From Candidatus Poribacteria bacterium (lineage in GTDB: Bacteria > Poribacteria > WGA-4E > WGA-3G): 64,000 nt of DNA. This document shows, in pieces, positions 16,618 to 27,137 of this stretch. The DNA lies in the NCBI GenBank assembly GCA_965197475.1, contig CBDANF010000003.1, positions 480,001 to 544,000 of the forward strand, read 5' to 3'. The position numbers were made by a program, and so were the translations under genes. Positions within the stretch are counted from its first letter, which is position 1. Every line of letters starts with the position of its first letter. The notes under the pieces are model-generated. The model was not told where the DNA came from. It did no database searches and saw only the letters and a program-made list of their open reading frames with translations.

Positions 16618-17880
16618 ATGGAAACGACAGTTATTCCGTTTCGTGGCTTACGCTACAATTTAGGGAAGGTGGAAAATATCACCGATGTTATCGCACCGCC
16701 TTATGATGTCATCAAACCTGAAGAACGGATTGAGTTGGAAGCGCGGCATCCCACTAATATCATCCGCTTAATTTTGAGCCAGCCGCGCGACAATGACACT
16801 GAAAACGATAATCAATACACACGCGCTGCCGCATTACTGAACCAATGGATTTCTGACCAAACCCTCGTCCGAGACACCACCCCTCGTTATTATATCTACG
16901 ATCAATCCTTTCACGCACCAGATGGAAAGCACTATACACGCCGTGCTATAATTGCCCTCGGTAAACTTGAACCTTTTGAAAATAGGGTTATTCTGCCTCA
17001 CGAAAAGACACATGCGGGACCGAAGATTGATCGACTCAATCTGATGCGGACTTGTCATGCGAACCTTAGTCCAATATTTCTTTTCTACCAAGATCCAAAC
17101 GGTGATATTGAGCAGATCATGCAGGGTTTTACCGATAAAACCCCCCCCGAAGTAGATTGCACTGAAACTTTTGGAAGTACACATCAATTGTGGTGTTTAG
17201 ACAATCCTGAATCCAATCGTGAAATTCAAAACCTATTTTCGTCGAAACCACTTCTGATTGCCGATGGACATCACCGCTATGAAACTGCCCTTGCATTTCG
17301 TGATGAGACGGTAAAGAATGCGGAAGACAAGACATCTGAGGGTTATGGCTATATGATGATGAATCTTGTCCGTATGGAATCATCGGGTTTAGCTGTTTTA
17401 GCAATTCACCGTTTACTGAGTAATCTTACTACAGAACAGATCAATCATGCTATTGCCGGGTTGCCCGAAGTATTTGAGGTACACGAAATCGATTCCCTTT
17501 CAAATCTTATGGAAAAATTGGGTACGTTTAAAGGGAAATCTCCTGCTGTTGGCATGTCCACACCTGACAAAAAATATCGTTTGTTAATTCCGCATTCCGC
17601 GTCTGCAGGACAATTAGATGTTACGCTTGTTCAAGAGACCATTATCAACAAGTTGTTTAAGGTCGAGACATTAGCAGACCATATCAGTTATACTGCTTAT
17701 GCTGATGATGCTGTAGCTCATGTTCATTATACGCAGCACCGTGTTGCATTACTCATGAATCCTACACCAGTTGAGCAGGTTTTAGATGTCGCAATGGCAG
17801 GATTGGTGATGCCGCAGAAATCAACTTATTTCTATCCAAAGATGGCGACAGGATTCGTTGTGAACCTATTGAATAGATAA
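16618..17880 (+). CDS. DUF1015 family protein
   Basis: PFRGLRY, APPYDVI, PHEKT, IADGHHRYETA, MPQKSTYFYPK. Confidence 0.9.
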   Translation: METTVIPFRGLRYNLGKVENITDVIAPPYDVIKPEERIELEARHPTNIIRLILSQPRDNDTENDNQYTRAAALLNQWISDQTLVRDTTPRYYIYDQSFHAPDGKHYTRRAIIALGKLEPFENRVILPHEKTHAGPKIDRLNLMRTCHANLSPIFLFYQDPNGDIEQIMQGFTDKTPPEVDCTETFGSTHQLWCLDNPESNREIQNLFSSKPLLIADGHHRYETALAFRDETVKNAEDKTSEGYGYMMMNLVRMESSGLAVLAIHRLLSNLTTEQINHAIAGLPEVFEVHEIDSLSNLMEKLGTFKGKSPAVGMSTPDKKYRLLIPHSASAGQLDVTLVQETIINKLFKVETLADHISYTAYADDAVAHVHYTQHRVALLMNPTPVEQVLDVAMAGLVMPQKSTYFYPKMATGFVVNLLNR

Positions 17881-17925
17881 ACCAGAACAATATTGTGGTA
17901 AGCGTGCTGTTTATTGTTTTAAAGT

Positions 17926-18047
17926 CAGGACTTACGCAATGTGTTTAAAAGTCCCACTGATAAGGGGGATTTAGGGGGTTAAAAGCACCAAATTCTGCCT
18001 ATTTAACCCCCTAACCCCCCTTATCAAGGGGGAATGCGTAAGTCCTG
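17926..18047. mobile_element. Second copy of the CAGGACTTACGCA MITE, 5-bp TSD AAAGT
   Basis: AAAGT at 17921-17925 and 18048-18052. Confidence 0.9.
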
Positions 18048-18091
18048 AAAGTAATCATAGGCTTTACTCAACACAGGAGATAGTTGACATT

Positions 18092-21019
18092 ATGAAAATA
18101 CGGAAAATTCTTATAACTGCAATCGTTTTCGCAAGCATCATTTCGATTCTTCCAATTTCTCATGCTTTTGAGTTTTCTTGGCAAATAGACGAAACACCTG
18201 AAGGTCAAGAGAGTGCAACTGCCGTCGAACCGATAGAAGTAACACTCTTAGATCAGCCTATACACGTGTCATCTCACAGTGCAGCAATTTTTTTAATGAA
18301 AAAGTATTCAGTTTACATAGATACAAACTGGAGCGGTTTAGACGCATACAAGCTGCTACAAACATTTGAATCGATACCACAACGAACGAATTGGAGATTT
18401 GCGAGACAAGATGTGTCTCCGTCGGTTTGGCAAATCAGTAATAGCCACATTCATAACGACATAGACATAGAACATAGAAGTGACACAAGAGTAGTCACAA
18501 TCGCATCTGATGCTTTTACCTATGCAAACCCCCTATTAGCAGAAATTGAAGGTGTCCGAGGCAGATTCTTTTCCAAACGGCTACATAATGCTGTCGTTCG
18601 GTTTGTAACCGATGACGGTAATAATAGAGATGTTATCAATAAAATACTGCGAGAACGTTATGATGTAAGCATTGATGTACCTGATTATGCAGAATTGACA
18701 AAATACACGACAGGTGAGAATCGCCACCGCTTCTCTGAATTCAAAAGCGAAGAATTATTGGTAATTCTTTCTATGCTTGAGGAATTTCCCCAAGGGATGC
18801 TTACTACACCAGGACTCAAATACCTTGTTCGCAGACTTGACGGCACGCCCAACCCCATATACCCAACAGCCCCTGCCATTGCATGGACAAGCGCAGGATA
18901 CATTGAATTCATGGAATCTGCTTTTAAAAATGCAGGCTATGACTATATGCACCGTCTGATTCTGCATGAAAAGGCACATTTTCTTTGGGAATACTTATTT
19001 GACGAACAACTCAAACAAGATTGGATTGAAATCGGCGGCTGGTATGAAAACCCCGACGACAAGGATGGATGGTCAACTACAAAGCAAGTTGAATTTGTAT
19101 CTGCTTATGCACACGGAATCAACCCGAACGAGGACATGGCAGAGAGTATTAGTTTTTACATTGTGAGACCTGACAAATTACGCTCACGTGCCCCCGCAAA
19201 ATACGAATTTATCCAAAATCGCATCATGCACGGCACACGATACATCTCACAAATTAGAGAGGATTTAACATTTGAAGTTTATAACTTATATCCTGACTAC
19301 GTCTATCCTGGAAGAATCATACGAATAGACATTCAAGTTGAAGGTGAACCCGAAGAAGATAAACTCGCAAAAATTGAAATAGAATTACACAAAGAAAGCG
19401 AATTAGACGCAGCGACAGTGGCATCTATCAGAATATTCAGTCCAAAAGGATCGTATACTGGGTTAAGACTGCGTCCAGTTGACGCACAAGGTAATAGGAT
19501 ACCTGCGGGACACATCTTACGAGGAAGTGTAGAAATTTCACGATATGCCCCTGACGGCTATTGGAATCCTGACCAAATCAATTTAACAGACGCAAACTCC
19601 AACAGTCGTTATAGTTCAAAAGTCGATTTCAATTGGATGATGTATATAAACAACCCGTTAGCTGATTGCGAACCCCCGAAATATGTGTCAAACACAATGC
19701 GATTGTCACTCTCACAACCCCAAAATACTGATGAAGGTGAATATCAGATAGTTACAGCAAGATGGCAAGCAACTGATAAAACAGACATAGACACATTAGC
19801 AGCACGGATAAACGACACATTTTTAGAAACATACTCACGCTTTTCATACGGCAAATTTGACCCTGAAACAAACACGGCAGAAGTCAATTTTAAGTTCCCA
19901 AACTACATGCCTGGCGGTGTATATAGTCTCAACTATATCACAATGAGAGACATAGCATTAAACTATTCTGCATACTATTTCACCGATCCAGAGATGGACG
20001 AAGCACCACAAACAATAGAGATACACACTACGAATCCCGACTTTGAGACACCCGAATTGGATATGAACAATATCACTATAGAAGCCACACCGACAAACCC
20101 TGAAGAACCGAATGGAGAAACTATAGTTGATATAACATTCTTTGCTAGAGATAATATTAGCGGTTACACCAAATCAGATATGCGTTTACGCGACCCGAAC
20201 GGCGTCATACATTTGTTCCGCCACTATCCTAAAGGACGAAGTGCTTTATATTTCCCTGGCGATCCGACTATATATAAAGAATACAACAAAACAATCGTAT
20301 TATCAGTCGGTAGCATTCCTGGAATTTGGGGACTTGCAGAAATGGTTCTCTATGACAAAGCAGGTAACACTCTCAAAGCCGATTTTACAGAGATCGTGCG
20401 GTTTGTCGTTGATGATACACCCGGTTCCGCTAACAAAACAGATGTCAACGGTGATGGCAAGGTCAACATTCTTGATCTGGTTTTTGTTGCGAATGCATTT
20501 GATGAATATGACGCGAAAGCGGATGTCAACGGAGATGGGGTGGTTAGCATACTGGATTTAGTATTAGTCGCAAGCTCCCTGGGAAATGACGAAATGGCAG
20601 CACCAAGTCTACACAAAAACGACCTTCAAAACTGGCTAACATTAGCACTTCAAAATGACAACGGAAGCTATAGGTATCGCCAAGGTCTAAACGTGTTACA
20701 ACGTCTGCTACTCACAGCACAACCCGAAAAAACAGCGCTGTTGCCAAACTATCCAAACCCATTCAATCCGGAGACGTGGATACCGTATCAATTAGCAGAA
20801 CCCGCAGATGTCACACTACACATTTATACTTCAGAAGGAAAGATTGTAAGAACATTTGAAATTGGACACAGACGGGCAGGTAAATATATCACAAAAAGTA
20901 GTGCCGCGTATTGGGATGGTAAAAACAGTTTTGGCGAAGTAGTTTCGACTGGTATATACTTCTATGAATTGCGAACCGATAACCAATCATTCACGAGAAA
21001 AATGATAATCGTCAAATAG
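18092..21019 (+). CDS. Secreted putative zinc metallopeptidase with dockerin-like repeats and a C-terminal sorting (FlgD/T9SS-like) domain
   Basis: Signal peptide; HEKAH (HExxH) plus EDMAES; two DVNGDG.V.ILDLV repeats; LLPNYPNPFNPETWIPYQL...GIYFY tail. Confidence 0.8.
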   Translation: MKIRKILITAIVFASIISILPISHAFEFSWQIDETPEGQESATAVEPIEVTLLDQPIHVSSHSAAIFLMKKYSVYIDTNWSGLDAYKLLQTFESIPQRTNWRFARQDVSPSVWQISNSHIHNDIDIEHRSDTRVVTIASDAFTYANPLLAEIEGVRGRFFSKRLHNAVVRFVTDDGNNRDVINKILRERYDVSIDVPDYAELTKYTTGENRHRFSEFKSEELLVILSMLEEFPQGMLTTPGLKYLVRRLDGTPNPIYPTAPAIAWTSAGYIEFMESAFKNAGYDYMHRLILHEKAHFLWEYLFDEQLKQDWIEIGGWYENPDDKDGWSTTKQVEFVSAYAHGINPNEDMAESISFYIVRPDKLRSRAPAKYEFIQNRIMHGTRYISQIREDLTFEVYNLYPDYVYPGRIIRIDIQVEGEPEEDKLAKIEIELHKESELDAATVASIRIFSPKGSYTGLRLRPVDAQGNRIPAGHILRGSVEISRYAPDGYWNPDQINLTDANSNSRYSSKVDFNWMMYINNPLADCEPPKYVSNTMRLSLSQPQNTDEGEYQIVTARWQATDKTDIDTLAARINDTFLETYSRFSYGKFDPETNTAEVNFKFPNYMPGGVYSLNYITMRDIALNYSAYYFTDPEMDEAPQTIEIHTTNPDFETPELDMNNITIEATPTNPEEPNGETIVDITFFARDNISGYTKSDMRLRDPNGVIHLFRHYPKGRSALYFPGDPTIYKEYNKTIVLSVGSIPGIWGLAEMVLYDKAGNTLKADFTEIVRFVVDDTPGSANKTDVNGDGKVNILDLVFVANAFDEYDAKADVNGDGVVSILDLVLVASSLGNDEMAAPSLHKNDLQNWLTLALQNDNGSYRYRQGLNVLQRLLLTAQPEKTALLPNYPNPFNPETWIPYQLAEPADVTLHIYTSEGKIVRTFEIGHRRAGKYITKSSAAYWDGKNSFGEVVSTGIYFYELRTDNQSFTRKMIIVK

Positions 21020-21034
21020 TATCAAATGACCATA

Positions 21035-21145
21035 GGATATCTGGAAGGTTGATGTTTATTGGCTTCCCAGCGATCATTAATGAGTGGGTTGCGTTGGGAT
21101 CGCGAGCATCCTCTTTGAGAAATGATGCGTTTAGCGATAAACGTG
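21035..21145 (-). ncRNA. Putative structured small RNA inside the DUF1670 element
   Basis: Lies just downstream of a near-consensus promoter; four adjacent short stems; no credible ORF or RBS. Confidence 0.4.
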
Positions 21146-21150
21146 TCTAA

Positions 21151-21179
21151 AGTATAGCAAAACCAGTAGCGGTTGTCAA
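21151..21179 (-). promoter_or_regulatory. Near-consensus sigma70 promoter TTGACA-17-TATACT with extended TG
   Basis: Minus strand TTGACA accgctactggttttgc TATACT. Confidence 0.75.
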
Positions 21180-21246
21180 CCATATTTTCAAGGCACCTGC
21201 CCCGGTTTTGCGAAGTAAAGTTCGTCGGGAACATAGGATTAGGGTC

Positions 21247-22131
21247 TCATTGGGCTTCTCCTTGGTGAGTGGCTTCATCGTTTGAGTCTGAATTGGCAAG
21301 GTCTGCATCTATGGCTTGGAGTTGGTGCTGCGGTATGAGGTCGAGATATTGAGAGATGACGCGTTTAGAAAGTCGTGTAATCTGTGAGATTTTATCAATA
21401 TCTGCGGTTGCTTTCCGAACGACTTTGACGCTCTCATAATCGCGAATGTATCTATCAACTGCCTCCTTAGAGTGTTTGGTCTTTGCGGCAATCCTGGGGG
21501 TGAGATGTCCTTGAAGATAGAGGGTTATGATCTCTTTCTTATGGGTAATAGCCCCCGATAAGTCATGGATATTGCCACGGGTGGGCAAGAGTTCTCCAGT
21601 GGTTTTTTGCCATTCATTAACATAATCACAGACAACGGCATCGCAGACATTGAGCAAAACTGCCAAGTCGAGTTGGGTCAATAATGCCCCTTGGTCATAA
21701 GCTTGATGACACCAGCGGACCAAGCGATTGATCCGCAATTGCCGGGAGGTGAAACCGTTGCGAAAGGATTCAATATCCTCTGCGGCGAGGTAAGTCAGGA
21801 TGACGGGTTTCATGCGGGTTTTGACGATGGACTTTCCTCTTTCTGGATGCTCTTCAATAGGGACGGCCATCCAAACGAGTTGTCCATAACTCAAGAAACG
21901 CTCATCCGGGAGTTGATCGCCGGTGGCGAGTTTCTCCAAAGGAAGGGTAATCACGAAATAGTCTTCAACGGTCTTAAGAATATCATCAACAATGGCGGTG
22001 GCAGTGACTTCGCCTTTGTCATAACCATAGTCATTGAGAAAGCGGTGAATGAGCAACTGTCGTAGGGACTTATCGTTGATGCGTCTGAATTTCTTCTCGT
22101 TGATTTGCGTGCGGGTTAGAGGTTTGCTCAT
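21247..22131 (-). CDS. DUF1670 domain protein (paralogue B)
   Basis: QAYDQGALLTQLDLAVLL...PTRG.IHD....THK...HSKEAVDRY; ATGA overlap with paralogue A. Confidence 0.8.
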   Translation of the reverse strand: MSKPLTRTQINEKKFRRINDKSLRQLLIHRFLNDYGYDKGEVTATAIVDDILKTVEDYFVITLPLEKLATGDQLPDERFLSYGQLVWMAVPIEEHPERGKSIVKTRMKPVILTYLAAEDIESFRNGFTSRQLRINRLVRWCHQAYDQGALLTQLDLAVLLNVCDAVVCDYVNEWQKTTGELLPTRGNIHDLSGAITHKKEIITLYLQGHLTPRIAAKTKHSKEAVDRYIRDYESVKVVRKATADIDKISQITRLSKRVISQYLDLIPQHQLQAIDADLANSDSNDEATHQGEAQ

Positions 22132-22928
22132 GAGAGGTCCCCCTTTTTTGTGTCCTCAGGTTCTGGGTGAAGGAGTTGGGTTATGCGATCTGTGTGTTGG
22201 TATTCCTCATAGAGTGAGAGATACTCGCGGATCAACCGGTCAGATAGATGGGTGATCAGGCGTATCTGTGCGTTAGGAAAGCCTTGATGATGGAGCGTAG
22301 CGACTTGTGTAAAGTCTTTCAAGTAGCGGTAGACAGCTCGTTCGCTGTGGTTCGTCTTTTTCTCGATTTCGGTGAAGGTATAGGCTTTGAAATATAACTC
22401 CAGGACCTGGGTTTTATGAGAAGTGCCGGGGCCCATGTCGTGTTTCGTCCCGCGCGTCATAACGAAATACCCATCCTGCTTCAAGTGTCGAATGTCGCGT
22501 TTGACTGTAGCAGGACTGGTGGTTAATAATACAGCTAAATCCTCGTAGCTCAGTAAGGCATCTTGGTCATAAGCTTCTTGGGTCAATCGGAGGATCCGAT
22601 GCCGTATGAGTCCTGCGAGACCATAATTCGCTAAGACTTCAAGATCGGCGTTTGTGTCATTGAGAGTTAGCCGACAGGAAACTTTTTTCGCTAAAGCGAT
22701 ATGTTTACCTGCGGGTTCCTCTGCGGCGACTGCCTCGTAGCAGATTTGCCCTGATGTCAGGTGCACATCGGCGTGTTGTTCAAAGTAGGTGGAAATCTGT
22801 TTATAGTAGGCTTCAGCAACGAGAGGCATTAGATTAAAGTCTGCTGAAATCTTCTGAATAATAGCGGCTCTGGCATTCTTGGATTCGAGCCGAGTGATAC
22901 CGTAAGCGGTATCCTTCTTGCGGTTCAT
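22128..22928 (-). CDS. DUF1670 domain protein (paralogue A)
   Basis: EAYDQDALLSYEDLAVLL...TRG..HDMGPGTSHK...HSERAVYRY; GGAGG RBS favours ATG at 22928. Confidence 0.8.
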   Translation of the reverse strand: MNRKKDTAYGITRLESKNARAAIIQKISADFNLMPLVAEAYYKQISTYFEQHADVHLTSGQICYEAVAAEEPAGKHIALAKKVSCRLTLNDTNADLEVLANYGLAGLIRHRILRLTQEAYDQDALLSYEDLAVLLTTSPATVKRDIRHLKQDGYFVMTRGTKHDMGPGTSHKTQVLELYFKAYTFTEIEKKTNHSERAVYRYLKDFTQVATLHHQGFPNAQIRLITHLSDRLIREYLSLYEEYQHTDRITQLLHPEPEDTKKGDLS

Positions 22929-22995
22929 ATTGACCTCCATGAATAGATTATCGGGGATCCGAGGACATCTACTCGTTAGTTTAACGAATACTAAT

Positions 22996-23024
22996 AGTAT
23001 AACTCATGGGGTCATTTGATACAA
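22996..23024 (-). promoter_or_regulatory. Candidate junction promoter TTGTAT-17-TATACT for the DUF1670 genes
   Basis: The -35 box uses 2 flanking bases plus the first 4 TIR bases. Confidence 0.5.
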
Positions 23025-23042
23025 ACTATAAGTAAATTTAAA

Positions 23043-23906
23043 ATGACTGGACGCAATATCAAACTGGAATCTCGCACAAAAATACTTATCATGATGATAT
23101 GTGGTTGCCTTGTCATTTTGCTTGATAGTCCTACCGCGTTGTTAACATGTTTTGTTGCAAGTATCCTTCTCGTTGCGTTTTCAGCACCAACCCTAAAACA
23201 GATCCGATTGTTACTACTCTTCCTATTTTTCACAACATGGGGATTGATTTATAGTCAGGCAATTTTCTACAACGAATTTCCTCGCACAGTTTTAATTACG
23301 CTTGTTCCCGCCGAATTGCCAATCATCGGGGATATGACAGGCGGCATCCGAATCTATCGCGAAGGACTTTTTCACGGTATTATTCAATCGATGCGGTTTA
23401 ATACCACCCTTGTGATCGGTTGTTACATTGTTTGGACCACACAACCTCGCGACCTACTTCTGGCATTGGTGCAGTTACGTGTACCTGGGGCATTAGCGTT
23501 TATGGTGACAACCGCGTTGCGTTTTACTCCATTGATTGCGAATGAAACATTAGCAATCATCCGTTCTCAAAGATTGCGCGGATTCCGTTACCTACGGTTC
23601 AACCTATTTGTCACAGTGCGCGGTGTTATCAATAGTTTGCGTCCTATCTTGGCAGGGAATATTCGGCATGCATCCCACCTTGGAGAATCGGTTGAAAGCC
23701 GAGGATTCTCACCGGACACAACATCAAAACGGACTTCATTACGAATCTCACGGATGGACAGGTGGGATTATTGTTTGCTTGCGTTGCTATGCCTCTGCTT
23801 GTTCTGCGTCATTGGTTTGAAAGTGCTCTATTTCTGCTATGTGAATGGTATCTATTACGGGGCGTGGTTGAGAGGTGTGTATACATTTGCCCGAGAGGTG
23901 TTATGA
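23043..23906 (+). CDS. ecfT: Energy-coupling factor transporter transmembrane component T
   Basis: TALRFTP, SQRLRG and SVESRGF XRX motifs; multiple TM segments; start uncertain. Confidence 0.85.
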   Translation: MTGRNIKLESRTKILIMMICGCLVILLDSPTALLTCFVASILLVAFSAPTLKQIRLLLLFLFFTTWGLIYSQAIFYNEFPRTVLITLVPAELPIIGDMTGGIRIYREGLFHGIIQSMRFNTTLVIGCYIVWTTQPRDLLLALVQLRVPGALAFMVTTALRFTPLIANETLAIIRSQRLRGFRYLRFNLFVTVRGVINSLRPILAGNIRHASHLGESVESRGFSPDTTSKRTSLRISRMDRWDYCLLALLCLCLFCVIGLKVLYFCYVNGIYYGAWLRGVYTFAREVL

Positions 23907-23944
23907 GGGATTTAGTCCGTAGGTTGGATTGAGCGCGTGTAACC

Positions 23945-24233
23945 CATAGGCATCAATTTAGTGTGCTATATGCAAAAAGATGCTGATTTGTGATGATAGC
24001 AGCACCAGCGGTGCGGAATGTTATAGAAAACAGTGTCAAACAGTCTCTTGAACCCCAGCGGGGGCAGCATGCGCTTTTGGCATGCTGCATGAGGTGTCTG
24101 ACAACACGTACACATATACACCTTTCGCCCTCTGGGGCTTGAGTTTGGTAGGGGTCGCGTGTCTGGACACCTTTCGCCCTCTGGGACTTAGATATCCAAA
24201 ATATAGGTTTATTTCCTTAAATTGACACCTATG
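23945..24233. mobile_element. MITE (CATAGG..TCAA.TTA ends) inserted in a GTAG-REP hairpin with a long duplication
   Basis: TGG[A/G]TTGAGCGCGTGTAACCCA at 23925-23946 and 24232-24253; contains the inverted 251-390 repeat. Confidence 0.75.
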
Positions 24234-24404
24234 GGTTGAGCGCGTGTAACCCAACAAAAGAGGCGCGTGAATTGCGCGACTACGAACGCGATACCTTTAA
24301 AATCCGCGTAATCCATGAAATTAGCGATAATTTGCGATTCTGACAAAAACCCGTGCGGTTAGGAAACCGCACCTACCGTCCATGGAGAACACTATGAGGT
24401 GAGA

Positions 24405-24923
24405 TTAACGTCCTACCTCCCAAGCCAGATGTTGAAGCTCCGGTCCGATGAGTTTTTCCCACGCCAGCCGCACAGCGGCATTTGAACCTGGCGTAGAAAT
24501 AACTACTTTTCCTTGATAGACTCCTGCTGTTGCACGCGATAACATAGCAGCAGCACCGACTTGGTCATAACTAAACATCCGAAAGAGTTCCCCAAAACCC
24601 GGCAACGTCTTTTCTAATTTACGATTGAGCACATCAAAAGTCGTGTCGCGTGGTGCGATGCCGGTCCCACCGTTAAATAAAATGACTTGAGCATCGCTTG
24701 CAGCCATTTTATCCAAAATGTCCGCAACCTGATCCGGTTCATCTTTAATAATCTGATAAGCGGTCACACTGTTTCCATCCGCCTCAACTTGTTCTCGTAT
24801 AAACGCAGCGTTTGTGTCTGTTTCTGGTGTCCGTGAATCACTTACGGTAACAATGGCAACTGAGACAGGACCTTCTTCAGCAGCTATCTCCCGATGCTGT
24901 TGTGTGCTTGTTGATGTCGTCAT
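24405..24923 (-). CDS. moaB: Molybdenum cofactor biosynthesis protein MoaB/MogA
   Basis: [36 protein letters not shown]. Confidence 0.9.
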
Positions 24924-24944
24924 AAAATAACCTCTTCCGTCAAA

Positions 24945-27137
24945 TTATTGATTTGGGTACGCCTTCTGCAAATGCCTTGGCATAGGAAAAAAGATTCCTT
25001 GAGTTTGTGCAGCGAGTGTTGTTTGAAAATCGTTAGGGTCTGGATAGCCTATCACATACGCGGTAATGCCTAATGATTGACATATCTCCAATGCTCTCTC
25101 CGCAGGATATTTGCCTGTAGTAGGTTCGTCAGTCAAAATAAGCAGGAATCGCCTCGCGTAAGGGCTAAATTTCACCTTAGGCACACCTTCAACGATAGCA
25201 TCAATAAGATGTTCATCACCACCAAATGGTTCTTCCATAAACCTTTTTATCAAACTTTCGTTGAGCGGCATCTGTGATACGACAGTCCCATTGATAGTCT
25301 TAATAGCATCTTTTGCTTCAGCAAAACGGATGAGTCCAATCCGATATTTTAGGGGAAAAATCGATAATCTGCCAATGAGTGTGCTTAACCCGAGCATGAC
25401 TGCATCCGCTTTTCCACCCATACTTCTGCTATAGTCTAACATTACCACAACATCGACGAGCGGTTCAGCACTGTTATTTGTTGTAGATGCACTTGGTTGT
25501 GCACCAATGTAAACTTTGAGACTATCTCTATCTCTCCGAATCGTATAAAATTGGTTGTTCCACCGGTCAGTAACGGTCCATCTATGAACAGATTGCCTTG
25601 CTCGAGCTATAAGATTAGCATCCAAATTCCAATAGTTTGGGGAGGCACCTGCATAAACGTTTATCTTATTTTCATCTTTACGAAGGGCATAAATTTGCTC
25701 ATTGCCGTAGTCTGTAATTACTAACAAATCATTATTCCGTTTTTCTAAAATTGCTGCATATCCCTCACTGAAAAAATCCGTTTTCAAGCCAAGCTCTTTG
25801 TTATCGAATTCTTGTTGTATTTTATTTATAGGGATATCACCTTCTTCAAAAAGCACTTCAAACTGTAATTCAAGGCTAAATAGCATTTTGCTACCGTTTT
25901 GCTGAATATCAGTAGCAATATCTTTGAATAATTTGAGAAGCGGGCGGTTCCCAACGCGATTACTTGGGAGTGCGGCGGGATTGGCGGGATTATAGAGGCT
26001 ACCGGGTATTTGTTCCCATACGCCCCCAGTGGCATCAGCTAATGTCTGCTGAAAAGGTTCGGGAAATCCAAGTATGTTTACGCGAACTTCCTCAAATTGA
26101 GATTGATCGATTACTTTTGCTCGCATATTAGTTATTGCGTTCTTTTCTCTCAAACTGGTTGATGCGGGTTCATCTGTAACTAAGATTAAGTGCTTTTCGG
26201 CGTCTGTGTGAAATTCCATATAGTCCAATGTATACAAAAGTGCATCAAGTGCATTTTCATCTCCACTCAGATGAACTTCTTTCATTCGCCGTCGAAGAAC
26301 ACTGACATCAGGTAACAGCGCACGTGTTTCGACCTTTTGACCCTTTTGCCGGACACTGAATTCAGACATGCCAAAATGGTATTCGAGATTGATAAGATCA
26401 AATGCATCCGTCATGCTATAAAGGTTTTCGGCGACCTGCTGGATGTTGTCGCGCATACTGGCACTTGTATCAAGCACAAAGACCACGTTGATCTTATCAA
26501 GTTCCCGTGTGCTAATAATATGCTCAGCAATCTTTTTGAGTGCTTCTCCGATTGGATTAGTACCACCGTCGTCTTTTCTAATTCCTTCTCCGATAGTTCC
26601 AATTTCTGCAGTTCCTTTTGACTCAAGCCTGTGAAATCCACTTTCGCCATCGCCTTTGACACGTTGTCGAAGACTTTTCACCCCTGCGCCTGAAGAGATT
26701 TCAAAGGGACTTGTGACAGATTTTGGAAGTGCTGCTGTACGGCTATTCAAATGCGTTGCTTGTGTTGTAACTTCAGGTAGTTTTGTCACTGTTTCAGACA
26801 CTGATTTTGTAGCATTGTGCATCAATACCTTCTTGGAAGGGCGAAGGGTTTCATCGATTAAATTTGAAGAAGCTTTTAAGGCAACATGTTTTGGACGGTA
26901 ATCAGAAATAGATTTGGTCTGTTTTGAGGTAAGTGTTTGCTTCGGTAGTGGTCGTTTTAATCTGCGTTGTTTCTGGGTATCCTTCATATCTATAAATTCC
27001 ACCCCAACAACATCTTCAATTTCATTACTAAGATGTGCATAGTAGAAAAATGTAAAAAGTATAGCGATGCAGAGATGGACAATCCCGGCAATCAGACAGG
27101 CATTCAATGAGCGTTGTTTTACTTCAGATCGAATCAT
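24945..27137 (-). CDS. Membrane-anchored tandem VWA-domain protein
   Basis: Two MIDAS motifs (VLDTSASM; MLDYSRSM), each with TDEP; N-terminal TM segment. Confidence 0.85.
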   Translation of the reverse strand: MIRSEVKQRSLNACLIAGIVHLCIAILFTFFYYAHLSNEIEDVVGVEFIDMKDTQKQRRLKRPLPKQTLTSKQTKSISDYRPKHVALKASSNLIDETLRPSKKVLMHNATKSVSETVTKLPEVTTQATHLNSRTAALPKSVTSPFEISSGAGVKSLRQRVKGDGESGFHRLESKGTAEIGTIGEGIRKDDGGTNPIGEALKKIAEHIISTRELDKINVVFVLDTSASMRDNIQQVAENLYSMTDAFDLINLEYHFGMSEFSVRQKGQKVETRALLPDVSVLRRRMKEVHLSGDENALDALLYTLDYMEFHTDAEKHLILVTDEPASTSLREKNAITNMRAKVIDQSQFEEVRVNILGFPEPFQQTLADATGGVWEQIPGSLYNPANPAALPSNRVGNRPLLKLFKDIATDIQQNGSKMLFSLELQFEVLFEEGDIPINKIQQEFDNKELGLKTDFFSEGYAAILEKRNNDLLVITDYGNEQIYALRKDENKINVYAGASPNYWNLDANLIARARQSVHRWTVTDRWNNQFYTIRRDRDSLKVYIGAQPSASTTNNSAEPLVDVVVMLDYSRSMGGKADAVMLGLSTLIGRLSIFPLKYRIGLIRFAEAKDAIKTINGTVVSQMPLNESLIKRFMEEPFGGDEHLIDAIVEGVPKVKFSPYARRFLLILTDEPTTGKYPAERALEICQSLGITAYVIGYPDPNDFQTTLAAQTQGIFFPMPRHLQKAYPNQ

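Follow-up and report, generated by a model that had tools for sequence, protein, structure and literature searches.

Results

The insertion sequence and its right end

The window analysed here is a stretch of 64,000 nucleotides of forward strand from a Candidatus Poribacteria bacterium (assembly GCA_965197475.1, contig CBDANF010000003.1, positions 480,001 to 544,000). A sequence-only reading of this stretch had flagged the minus strand of positions 21,035 to 21,179 as a strong internal promoter followed by a putative small RNA of four hairpins, inside an element with DUF1670 genes. The flagged segment is part of the 230-nt non-coding tail at the right end of a 2.0-kb insertion sequence. We find that this tail carries a complete and conserved promoter that points out of the element and, further towards the end, one hairpin (HP-R) whose pairing is supported by covariation, whereas the RNA of four hairpins did not withstand the comparison with relatives.

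The insertion sequence is read on the minus strand, from ATAG at 23029 to CTAT at 21016 (2014 bp), and is present in about 20 copies in the genome; its ends were set by pairing left with right ends (20 pairs in the same genome) and from relatives. Comparison of the flanks places the duplicated target dinucleotide TT at 21014-21015 on the right (AA in the sense of the host gene) and at 23030-23031 on the left. The cores of the terminal inverted repeats, GGTCATTTGATAC on the right (21019-21031, minus strand) and GTATCAAATGACC on the left (23010-23022, minus strand), are complementary at 13 of 13 positions. The only two genes of the element lie in tandem on the minus strand, overlap by 4 nt and both encode DUF1670 helix-turn-helix (HTH) proteins: orfA (22128-22940; 270 aa as listed; PF07900, E = 2.5e-61), for which the second ATG at 22928, preceded at 5 nt by GGAGG, is the likelier start, and orfB (21247-22131; 294 aa; PF07900, E = 1.2e-61). 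Convergent with the element is the host gene (18092-21019, plus strand), whose 975-aa product is metallopeptidase-like and combines a dockerin with a C-terminal sorting domain for type IX secretion.

The flagged segment with its surroundings (271 nt) occurs 20 times in the genome, at 90-100% identity, and the pairing of exact left and right end motifs likewise gave 20 units, of which 18 measure about 2.02 kb, one about 1.79 kb and one about 0.45 kb; DUF1670 matches number 39. The element showed each of the family features that were tested, namely a tandem PF07900 gene pair, inverted repeats, multiple copies, a single orientation and a gene-end target. Of 61 genomes in the same order, 35 contain its tail DNA; OrfB is present in 46 of the 176 genomes of the phylum, all in three families of one order. 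In the literature searched we found no mention of DUF1670 or PF07900; the two-gene DUF1670 element family is absent from it, and what is new in this work is the conserved promoter together with the right-end hairpin.

A conserved promoter directed out of the element

The promoter consists of a -35 box TTGACA (21174-21179, minus strand) and, after a 17-nt spacer, an extended -10 box TGcTATACT (21151-21159, minus strand; TG at 21159-21158, TATACT at 21156-21151). These boxes, like the four stems and the CCAA that opens both large loops, lie exactly where the sequence-only reading had put them. Its claim of a strong internal promoter is borne out as well. Indeed, a consensus scan of 17000-25000 returned 21 promoter-like sites, compared with 16.4 +/- 3.4 in shuffles, and among them this is the sole match at 11 of 12 positions and the sole site with the TG. 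It points from the element toward the 3' end of the convergent peptidase gene, and is thus outward-firing in orientation, as had been proposed.

Relatives keep this arrangement. The 38 loci with a right end yielded 35 distinct full-length tails of 185 nt, two duplicates and one cut contig having been set aside and none for want of a box; the OrfB proteins of these relatives are 79-100% identical. The TG precedes the -10 box in 35 of 35 tails. The -10 box itself is TATACT in 32, with TATAAT, TACACT and TAAACT once each, and the -35 box, which is seen by the scan and conserved in relatives, opens with TTG in 34 of 35 (TTGACA in 23, TTGGCA in 5, TTGATA in 4, TTGACC and TTGAGA in 1 each, and a degenerate TCGGAA in 1). 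Twenty-eight tails have a spacer of 17 nt and seven one of 18 nt, and its letters vary. The distance from the end of the -10 box to the end of the element, 135 nt in this copy, is 134-136 nt in 29 tails, 139 nt in one and 102-103 nt in five. Position-weighted conservation peaks at the -35 box, at TTTTGnTATACT, at HP-R and at the terminal repeat, with the promoter boxes as high as the terminal repeat. Furthermore, the genome itself holds 626 sites that match this promoter consensus at 11 of 12 positions or better; its contig C2 has 156 consensus sites against 27-43 in shuffles, and the TG is found on 217 of the 626, where about 1 in 16 would be expected. Because the promoter is conserved in relatives and belongs to a type that the genome over-uses, we take it, on these sequence grounds, to be probably functional. 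Among more distant DUF1670 loci from other phyla (L151-L155, which are high-GC and on short contigs and thus make for a weak test), no site of at least 10 of 12 was seen behind the second gene.

The predicted transcribed tail covers 21016-21144 on the minus strand, from a start placed about 7 nt after the -10 box to the end of the element. Eight terminator-like sites were found in 17000-25000 and none of them lies in the tail; the sequence directly after HP-R, CUAUGGUCAU, does not fit the intrinsic-terminator pattern. The earlier statement that no open reading frame supported by a ribosome-binding site (RBS) follows the promoter also stands: downstream of the start site there is a single ATG, its frame of 6-17 codons ends at a stop that shifts between relatives, and in the alignment this ATG is missing from the subfamily of genomes G060, G038 and G047. 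We therefore discarded a small open reading frame in the tail.

One hairpin of the right end covaries

The four stems of the sequence-only reading, all on the minus strand, are CGTTTA/TAAACG (stem 1, 21143-21128), GCATC/GATGC with an inner TTCT/AGAG (stem 2, 21106-21128), GCGATC/GATCGC (stem 3, 21103-21070) and CTGGGAAG/CTTCCAG (stem 4 as drawn, 21070-21041), the loops of stems 3 and 4 being those that start with CCAA. As a single sequence the tail folds no better than chance: 127 nt gave -24.2 kcal/mol (z = -1.53, 17 of 200 shuffles as good), and 131 nt gave z = -1.45. Imposed on 27 homologous tails, the four stems leave 74.8% of cells paired compared with 70.7% in shuffles, and their two-sided pair changes number 7 against a shuffled mean of 6.8, a count reached by 291 of 500 shuffles; stem 4 as drawn has none. 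The sole output of RNAalifold was a 3-bp invariant helix in the terminal repeat. A discrete small RNA of four hairpins is thus not supported, and the individual stems fare differently. Stems 1 and 3 are unconserved, stem 1 being broken in many relatives and replaced by unrelated sequence in more distant subfamilies, and stem 3 competing with a better helix; the caveat that short stems may pair by chance holds for these two. Stem 2 coincides with a conservation peak and has 85.1% of cells paired, with just 1 of 9 pairs changed on both sides; its block GCATCATTTCT is conserved mainly as sequence, and a many-copy short-tail subfamily lacks the 3' half of the stem and the entire CCAAC block. An alternative fold of the 5' domain (CGUU/AACG and AUCGC/GCGAU around stem 2; 64 nt, z = -2.57) was rejected since, by eye, it is not kept in relatives.

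What survives of the four hairpins is stem 4 in an extended form. This hairpin, HP-R (21036-21075, minus strand), pairs GATCGCTGGGAAG with CTTCCAG[A/C]TATC around the loop AAGC[C/T]AATAAACATCA; in its general form, GAT[C/G]G[C/T]TG[G/C]GAA is joined to TTCC[A/G]GC[T/G]ATC through the loop AAGC[C/T]AATAAACATCAGC. Most of 48 distinct right ends adopt it when folded singly. When these 48 were aligned with MAFFT, without reference to structure, 81.6% of cells were paired compared with 18-43% for slid partners, and 8 of 13 pairs showed two-sided changes against 4.2 in shuffles, a value reached by 1 of 500. An alignment of 69 distinct model matches, this one fitted to the structure, gave 82.2% of cells paired and two-sided changes in 8 of 12 pairs, against 4.5 and reached by 4 of 500. 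The covariance model of HP-R has a single match in the window, at 21024-21081 (73.1 bits), and one match per element in 22 of 22 complete new loci. These compensatory changes support HP-R as a real conserved base-paired structure. Rfam holds nothing for 21016-21246, its two weak matches (E = 4.5 and 4.7) falling elsewhere and far under the gathering threshold.

A stretch of 20 nt in the tail (21115-21134, minus strand) is repeated directly, with 18 of 20 identical letters, in orfB (21349-21368), where it codes for ...SKRVISQ.... Of 11 further elements tested, two (L136 and L147) have this tail-orfB pairing as their top match, and L147 shows the same T-to-C change in each copy of the block. The sequence-only reading had considered that the segment could be what is left of a deleted transposase gene. 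We rejected a DUF1670-gene remnant, as the alignment with orfB is confined to these 20 nt and the best peptide match spans 10 residues.

The left leader and the DUF1670 proteins

At the other end, the left leader (22929-23029, minus strand) pairs GACCCCAUGA, at the inner left end, with UCAUGGAGGUC, which contains the RBS and first ATG of orfA. It folds as a three-way junction (-29.1 kcal/mol, z = -4.18, 0 of 200 shuffles as good). From RBS to ATG, the unpaired probability averages 0.53 in RNA begun at the presumed native start, 0.16 in read-through transcripts and 0.32 in a modelled junction RNA. The candidate promoter of orfA itself, TTGTAT-17-TATACT without TG, is weak and absent from the consensus-scan list.

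Beyond DUF1670, both proteins match only HTH families in Pfam. The DUF1670 family comprises 1017 representatives at E <= 0.001, nearly all of 250-300 aa, and H197, H220 and Y228 are invariant among 75 aligned members. A few DUF1670 proteins (P0013, P0015, P0021 and P0023) measure about 930-950 aa and show three matched stretches, as if three units had been fused. The AlphaFold2 model of OrfB (pLDDT 86.6) contains a winged HTH (residues 128-192) and a sigma-4/LuxR-like HTH (residues 195-243), both at Z of about 6 in VIA-align, which returned only HTH-domain matches (Z at most 6.3, residues 126-282). Foldseek gave no match to the model at E <= 0.001, and the OrfB sequence had no meaningful match among solved structures (best E = 0.19) and none among plasmids. 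No catalytic fold was recognised in the OrfB fold searches, in which residues 1-125 were not searched by themselves.

Insertion at the ends of type IX secretion cargo genes

Insertions fall within the final Lys codon of genes for type IX secretion cargo, and element and host gene are convergent in every case. The Lys codon and the stop are rebuilt in the process: the target gives AA, and the element supplies the third A of the codon and a TAG stop. Translated in the host sense, the right flank encodes the end of a sorting domain (...TRKMLIxK-stop) in 17 of 20 units, one of these 17 with an internal stop, and the remaining 3 adjoin other sequence. A hidden Markov model of sorting-domain ends found 52 open reading frames in the genome, 16 occupied by an element and 36 empty; 31 of the empty genes end in AA(G/A) T(A/G)(A/G) and 5 in an Arg codon plus stop. 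We noticed that the gene-end right flank (..CCGTATCAACATCTT.., for example 20990-21015) resembles the terminal repeat (GTATCAA) and the hairpin loop (AACATC), a likeness in sequence that may reflect a pseudo-end or decoy relation.

A sister subfamily (loci L098 and L101-L112; genomes G060, G047 and G038), with an OrfB about 79% identical and 10 copies in G060, does not use gene ends. Its target is a repeated palindrome, in whose loop it inserts at TT (GAAACCGAGTTTT / TT / CTTCAAAACTCGGTTTC); the palindrome has a 13-bp stem (GAAACCGAGTTTT...AAAACTCGGTTTC) and is probably a terminator-like repeat or one like the repetitive extragenic palindromes.

Allowing for descent, hairpin loops do not track the target

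The sequence-only reading had suggested that the tail RNA could serve as a guide or cofactor. The HP-R loops include the types AACATCAGC, CATATGGGC and ACCACGCGC. The last two are both found in the sister subfamily, at one shared palindromic target, while their near-twins CACATGGGC (of CATATGGGC) and ACCACGGGC (of ACCACGCGC) occur at gene-end targets, in one row each. Since differing loops share a target and near-twins sit at the other type of target, the association of loop with target, as read from these sequences, is one of descent and not of pairing. Nor are the flanks significantly more similar where the elements are: the identities of element and flank correlate with a Spearman coefficient of 0.16 (permutation p = 0.087), and flank identity over 24 nt is 66.5% in 27 pairs of near-identical elements compared with 60.6% in 81 diverged pairs. 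RNAduplex, run on long sequences as a crude test, paired the tail with the remainder of the element no better than it did shuffles; the best duplex energies lie within about 1.7 standard deviations of the shuffles in 8 of 8 elements.

Derivatives and relic ends

Four internal-deletion derivatives with this tail, of 442, 324, 367 and 557 bp, all keep the extended -10 box and the tail from there to the end, the 557-bp one without an internal stretch of it. In another set of derivatives (L079:259-1552 in G044; L076, L089 and L090 in G050; L072 in G043; L097 in G060), the intact DUF1670 genes are replaced by a Transposase_31/Rpn-like gene in reverse orientation, encoding a PD-(D/E)XK protein of 319 aa (PF04754, E = 1.2e-29). 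Remnants of orfB persist beside it, with 45-49 residues in L072, L089 and L097 and 27 residues in L076, while tblastn detected no piece of orfB in L079 or L090. Genome G050 has 7 right ends, yet just an orfB fragment, and G000, the genome that contains the window, has one distant Rpn homologue (30% identity).

Right ends are also present as relics in many relatives: they measure 50-190 nt, lack a DUF1670 gene within 1.5 kb and adjoin the stop codon that they supply. They occur even in genomes without an OrfB match (G023, G014, G017, G013, G004, G005, G016, G007 and others), among which G023 has 11 tail matches. Those examined, 1-4 per genome, mostly adjoin the stop codon of a sorting domain (exceptions, L085 and L096), and it is probably because they provide this codon that relic ends persist.

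Contigs from RNA libraries

The RNA data were contigs of four metatranscriptome libraries from three studies, in which the rows of X1 and X2 are labelled 'sponge metagenome'. Contigs cover the element, its tail included, and bridge orfB to the tail (21080-21403, 21015-21556 and 21144-21309) and the flank to the tail (20572-21109). The bins to the left of the element (23038-23300) are uncovered in all four runs and the tail bins are no deeper than the gene bins, figures that, coming from contigs, are not usable as evidence. One contig (X2, record 10) ends exactly at 21144, the predicted start site. We do not read this end as a start, since it stops one base before 21143, a position that varies between copies.

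Discussion

What does the right end do for the element? Our preferred answer, held tentatively and at a little under an even chance, is that it is a cis-regulatory, insulating module in which HP-R is a protein contact site. We favour this role because each copy splits a host gene from its terminator and faces that gene head-on; moreover, the conservation of the promoter indicates that it matters to the element to have its right end transcribed outward. The promoter would fire outward from about 21144, and the transcript would cover the conserved tail, HP-R and the terminal repeat before entering the flank, antisense to the 3' end of the host gene. As insertion separates the host gene from its own terminator, host RNA polymerase should enter the element from the right, and a strong opposing promoter with a structured end would curb both this read-in and antisense RNA against orfB and orfA. 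On the other side, the folded left leader would block translation of transcripts entering from the left. The proteins of the element, which bind DNA or RNA, probably make contact at HP-R and at the conserved blocks.

Several observations weigh against this proposal. RNAalifold finds no consensus structure on 27 or on 30 homologous tails and does not call HP-R, which in this copy is weak (-7 to -10 kcal/mol; z = -0.32 for the 67-nt end). Neither G-U cells (47) nor A-C cells (60) prevail in it, so that the folding strand and the RNA or DNA form of the hairpin are indistinguishable. Insulation is something that we infer, no canonical terminator facing the host gene; outward firing from a constitutive promoter would shut that gene down even though the element keeps its reading frame intact; and the conserved blocks between promoter and HP-R are left unexplained. 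The Transposase_31 derivatives keep HP-R and the repeats and not the outward promoter, which indicates that the end can do without the promoter in cis. Finally, the contigs of the RNA libraries carry neither strand, ends nor reliable depth, and DNA may be present in them.

Three other explanations keep the promoter or the hairpin and assign them a different purpose. By analogy with the junction promoters known in the IS3, IS30, IS21 and IS256 families, a circle or head-to-tail dimer could let the right-end promoter read into orfA-orfB and give a burst of protein. The weakness of the promoter of orfA beside the strength and conservation of the outward one would suit such a scheme, as would the pairing of the terminal repeats in the modelled transcript, where the unpaired probability of the RBS rises from 0.16 in read-through to 0.32. 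However, the RBS is still largely paired at 0.32, compared with 0.53 for the native start, and the promoter is complete and lies 135 nt inside the end instead of being split across the ends, which argues that it is not junction-specific. No 21016-23029 back-joint appears in the joints listed for the four RNA-library runs, a weak point given that contigs drop rare forms. We consider junction-driven expression unlikely, though the least so of the three. It is somewhat less probable that the boxes and HP-R are DNA-level sites only, bound by the HTH proteins of the element on double- or single-stranded DNA, with the hexamers contacted by the sigma-region-4-like HTH of DUF1670 or the promoter firing incidentally. 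OrfB is made of just such modules, winged-HTH and sigma-4/LuxR-like; HP-R lacks a strand bias between G-U and A-C cells, derivatives with other cargo retain just HP-R and the repeats, and orfB contains a near-copy of the 20-nt tail block, as would suit a protein site common to both. Yet the conserved letters are those contacted by the sigma-70 holoenzyme (TTG, TG, TA...T), at a spacing of 17-18 nt and in a consensus that the organism uses, and the compensatory changes in HP-R indicate base pairing over fixed half-sites. Slightly less probable again is an antisense RNA directed at the host, which would tune the occupied type IX secretion gene and, through similarity, its paralogues. The element is always convergent with no terminator before the flank, library contigs span the right junction, elements occupy 16 of 52 such genes, and two relic ends long enough to hold the promoter (G023solo and G007solo) have kept it. 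But silencing is at odds with the rebuilding of the Lys codon and stop, which spares the gene; the sister subfamily keeps the promoter although it inserts in non-genic palindromes; and most relic ends have lost it.

A guide or cofactor RNA, in which the tail RNA would bind the DUF1670 proteins and specify the target through its loops or the flank into which it is read, appears to us very improbable. The order of promoter, conserved scaffold and element end is that of an omega RNA; no catalytic fold was recognised in the proteins (with OrfB residues 1-125 not searched alone), the HP-R loop of gene-end elements resembles the target flank (AATnAACATC), and loop types and target classes coincide in most rows. 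This coincidence, however, tracks descent, as two loop variants share one palindromic target, and the remaining evidence is no more favourable: the correlation between element and flank identity is not significant, similarity among occupied flanks reaches only about 60-67% over 24 nt, Rfam has no match, and tail-element pairing stays at the level of shuffles. A bolder version, to which we give equally little credit, is a self-updating targeting RNA templated by the flank, whose scaffold of about 135 nt would bind the HTH proteins while its copy of the flank found look-alike sites. The reasoning is that an element with no protein of recognisable DNA-cutting fold may depend on a right-end RNA, and that such an RNA would carry a copy of the occupied site, since transcription runs on into the flank. 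If this were true, the flank copy would locate the paralogous ends of secretion genes or, in the sister lineage, the repeated palindrome.

Known insertion sequences offer partial parallels to this element. In IS10, a strong outward promoter near one end, pOUT, produces RNA-OUT, a short stem-loop RNA that regulates the element and that overlaps the 5' end of the transposase mRNA, to which it is antisense. Our element likewise has a strong promoter inside an insertion sequence, directed outward near one end, but here it lies at the far end, about 1.8 kb from the start of orfA, and reads in the same sense as the genes; no specific pairing of the tail with other parts of the element was found. IS10 and IS50 also have leaders that protect against read-through. 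The left leader described here, at the opposite end from the flagged segment, similarly pairs an end-proximal segment with the RBS of the presumed transposase gene, and on the folding model external transcripts through it would be left untranslated, as in IS10 and IS50. Complete outward promoters are known in ISAba1 or IS1-type elements, and split junction promoters in IS3, IS30 and IS21. As in the former, the end promoter fires, by prediction, across the terminal repeat into neighbouring DNA; here, however, insertion occurs at a fixed site and in constant convergence with the neighbour, so that no downstream gene is switched on, and the promoter is conserved to the level of the terminal repeat. 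Unlike the split promoters, both hexamers stand together and complete.

The omega RNAs of TnpB (IS200/IS605) and IscB are structured, about 100-150 nt long, and located at the 3' or right end, with transcription continuing past the boundary into the flank. The tail shares the position, as a non-coding right-end segment, and the predicted transcription across the element boundary, but the element encodes no TnpB or IscB, only DUF1670 proteins, has inverted repeats and a 2-bp duplication, lacks an Rfam match and gives no sign that flank or loop guides targeting. The bridge RNA of IS110/IS1111, a structured RNA, is encoded upstream of the DEDD recombinase gene and has large internal loops complementary to target and donor. 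Both cases concern a non-coding end of a site-specific insertion sequence, and one subfamily here targets palindromic repeats; the differences are that the tail lies downstream of HTH-only genes, that DEDD and Tnp domains are absent (Pfam finds DUF1670 only) and that the loops do not track the targets.

Several insertion-sequence families have recently been found to encode RNAs that steer DNA recombination or cutting. The element studied here carries DNA-binding proteins only, yet inserts base-exactly, and a promoter conserved like the terminal repeats, together with a structured end, provides a handle on how a transposase-less element moves or controls itself. Should insulation be the whole of its function, it would still be a neat example of a gene-end-specific element coping with convergent transcription. 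Any outward antisense transcription could, in this sponge-associated bacterium, touch many surface proteins at once, as 16 of the 52 secretion-cargo genes are occupied.

Other observations on individual copies

In two pairs of copies (G000; C2:1162565 with C3:847207, and C2:1472031 with C3:49937), the flank is identical on one side only, a pattern that suggests an assembly join, a segmental duplication or recombination of one copy with the other. At L069 in G005, a miniature unit of about 75 nt joins part of the left terminal repeat directly to a right-end hairpin with perfect pairing and to the right repeat; it sits at the stop codon of a sorting domain and is apparently single-copy in that genome.

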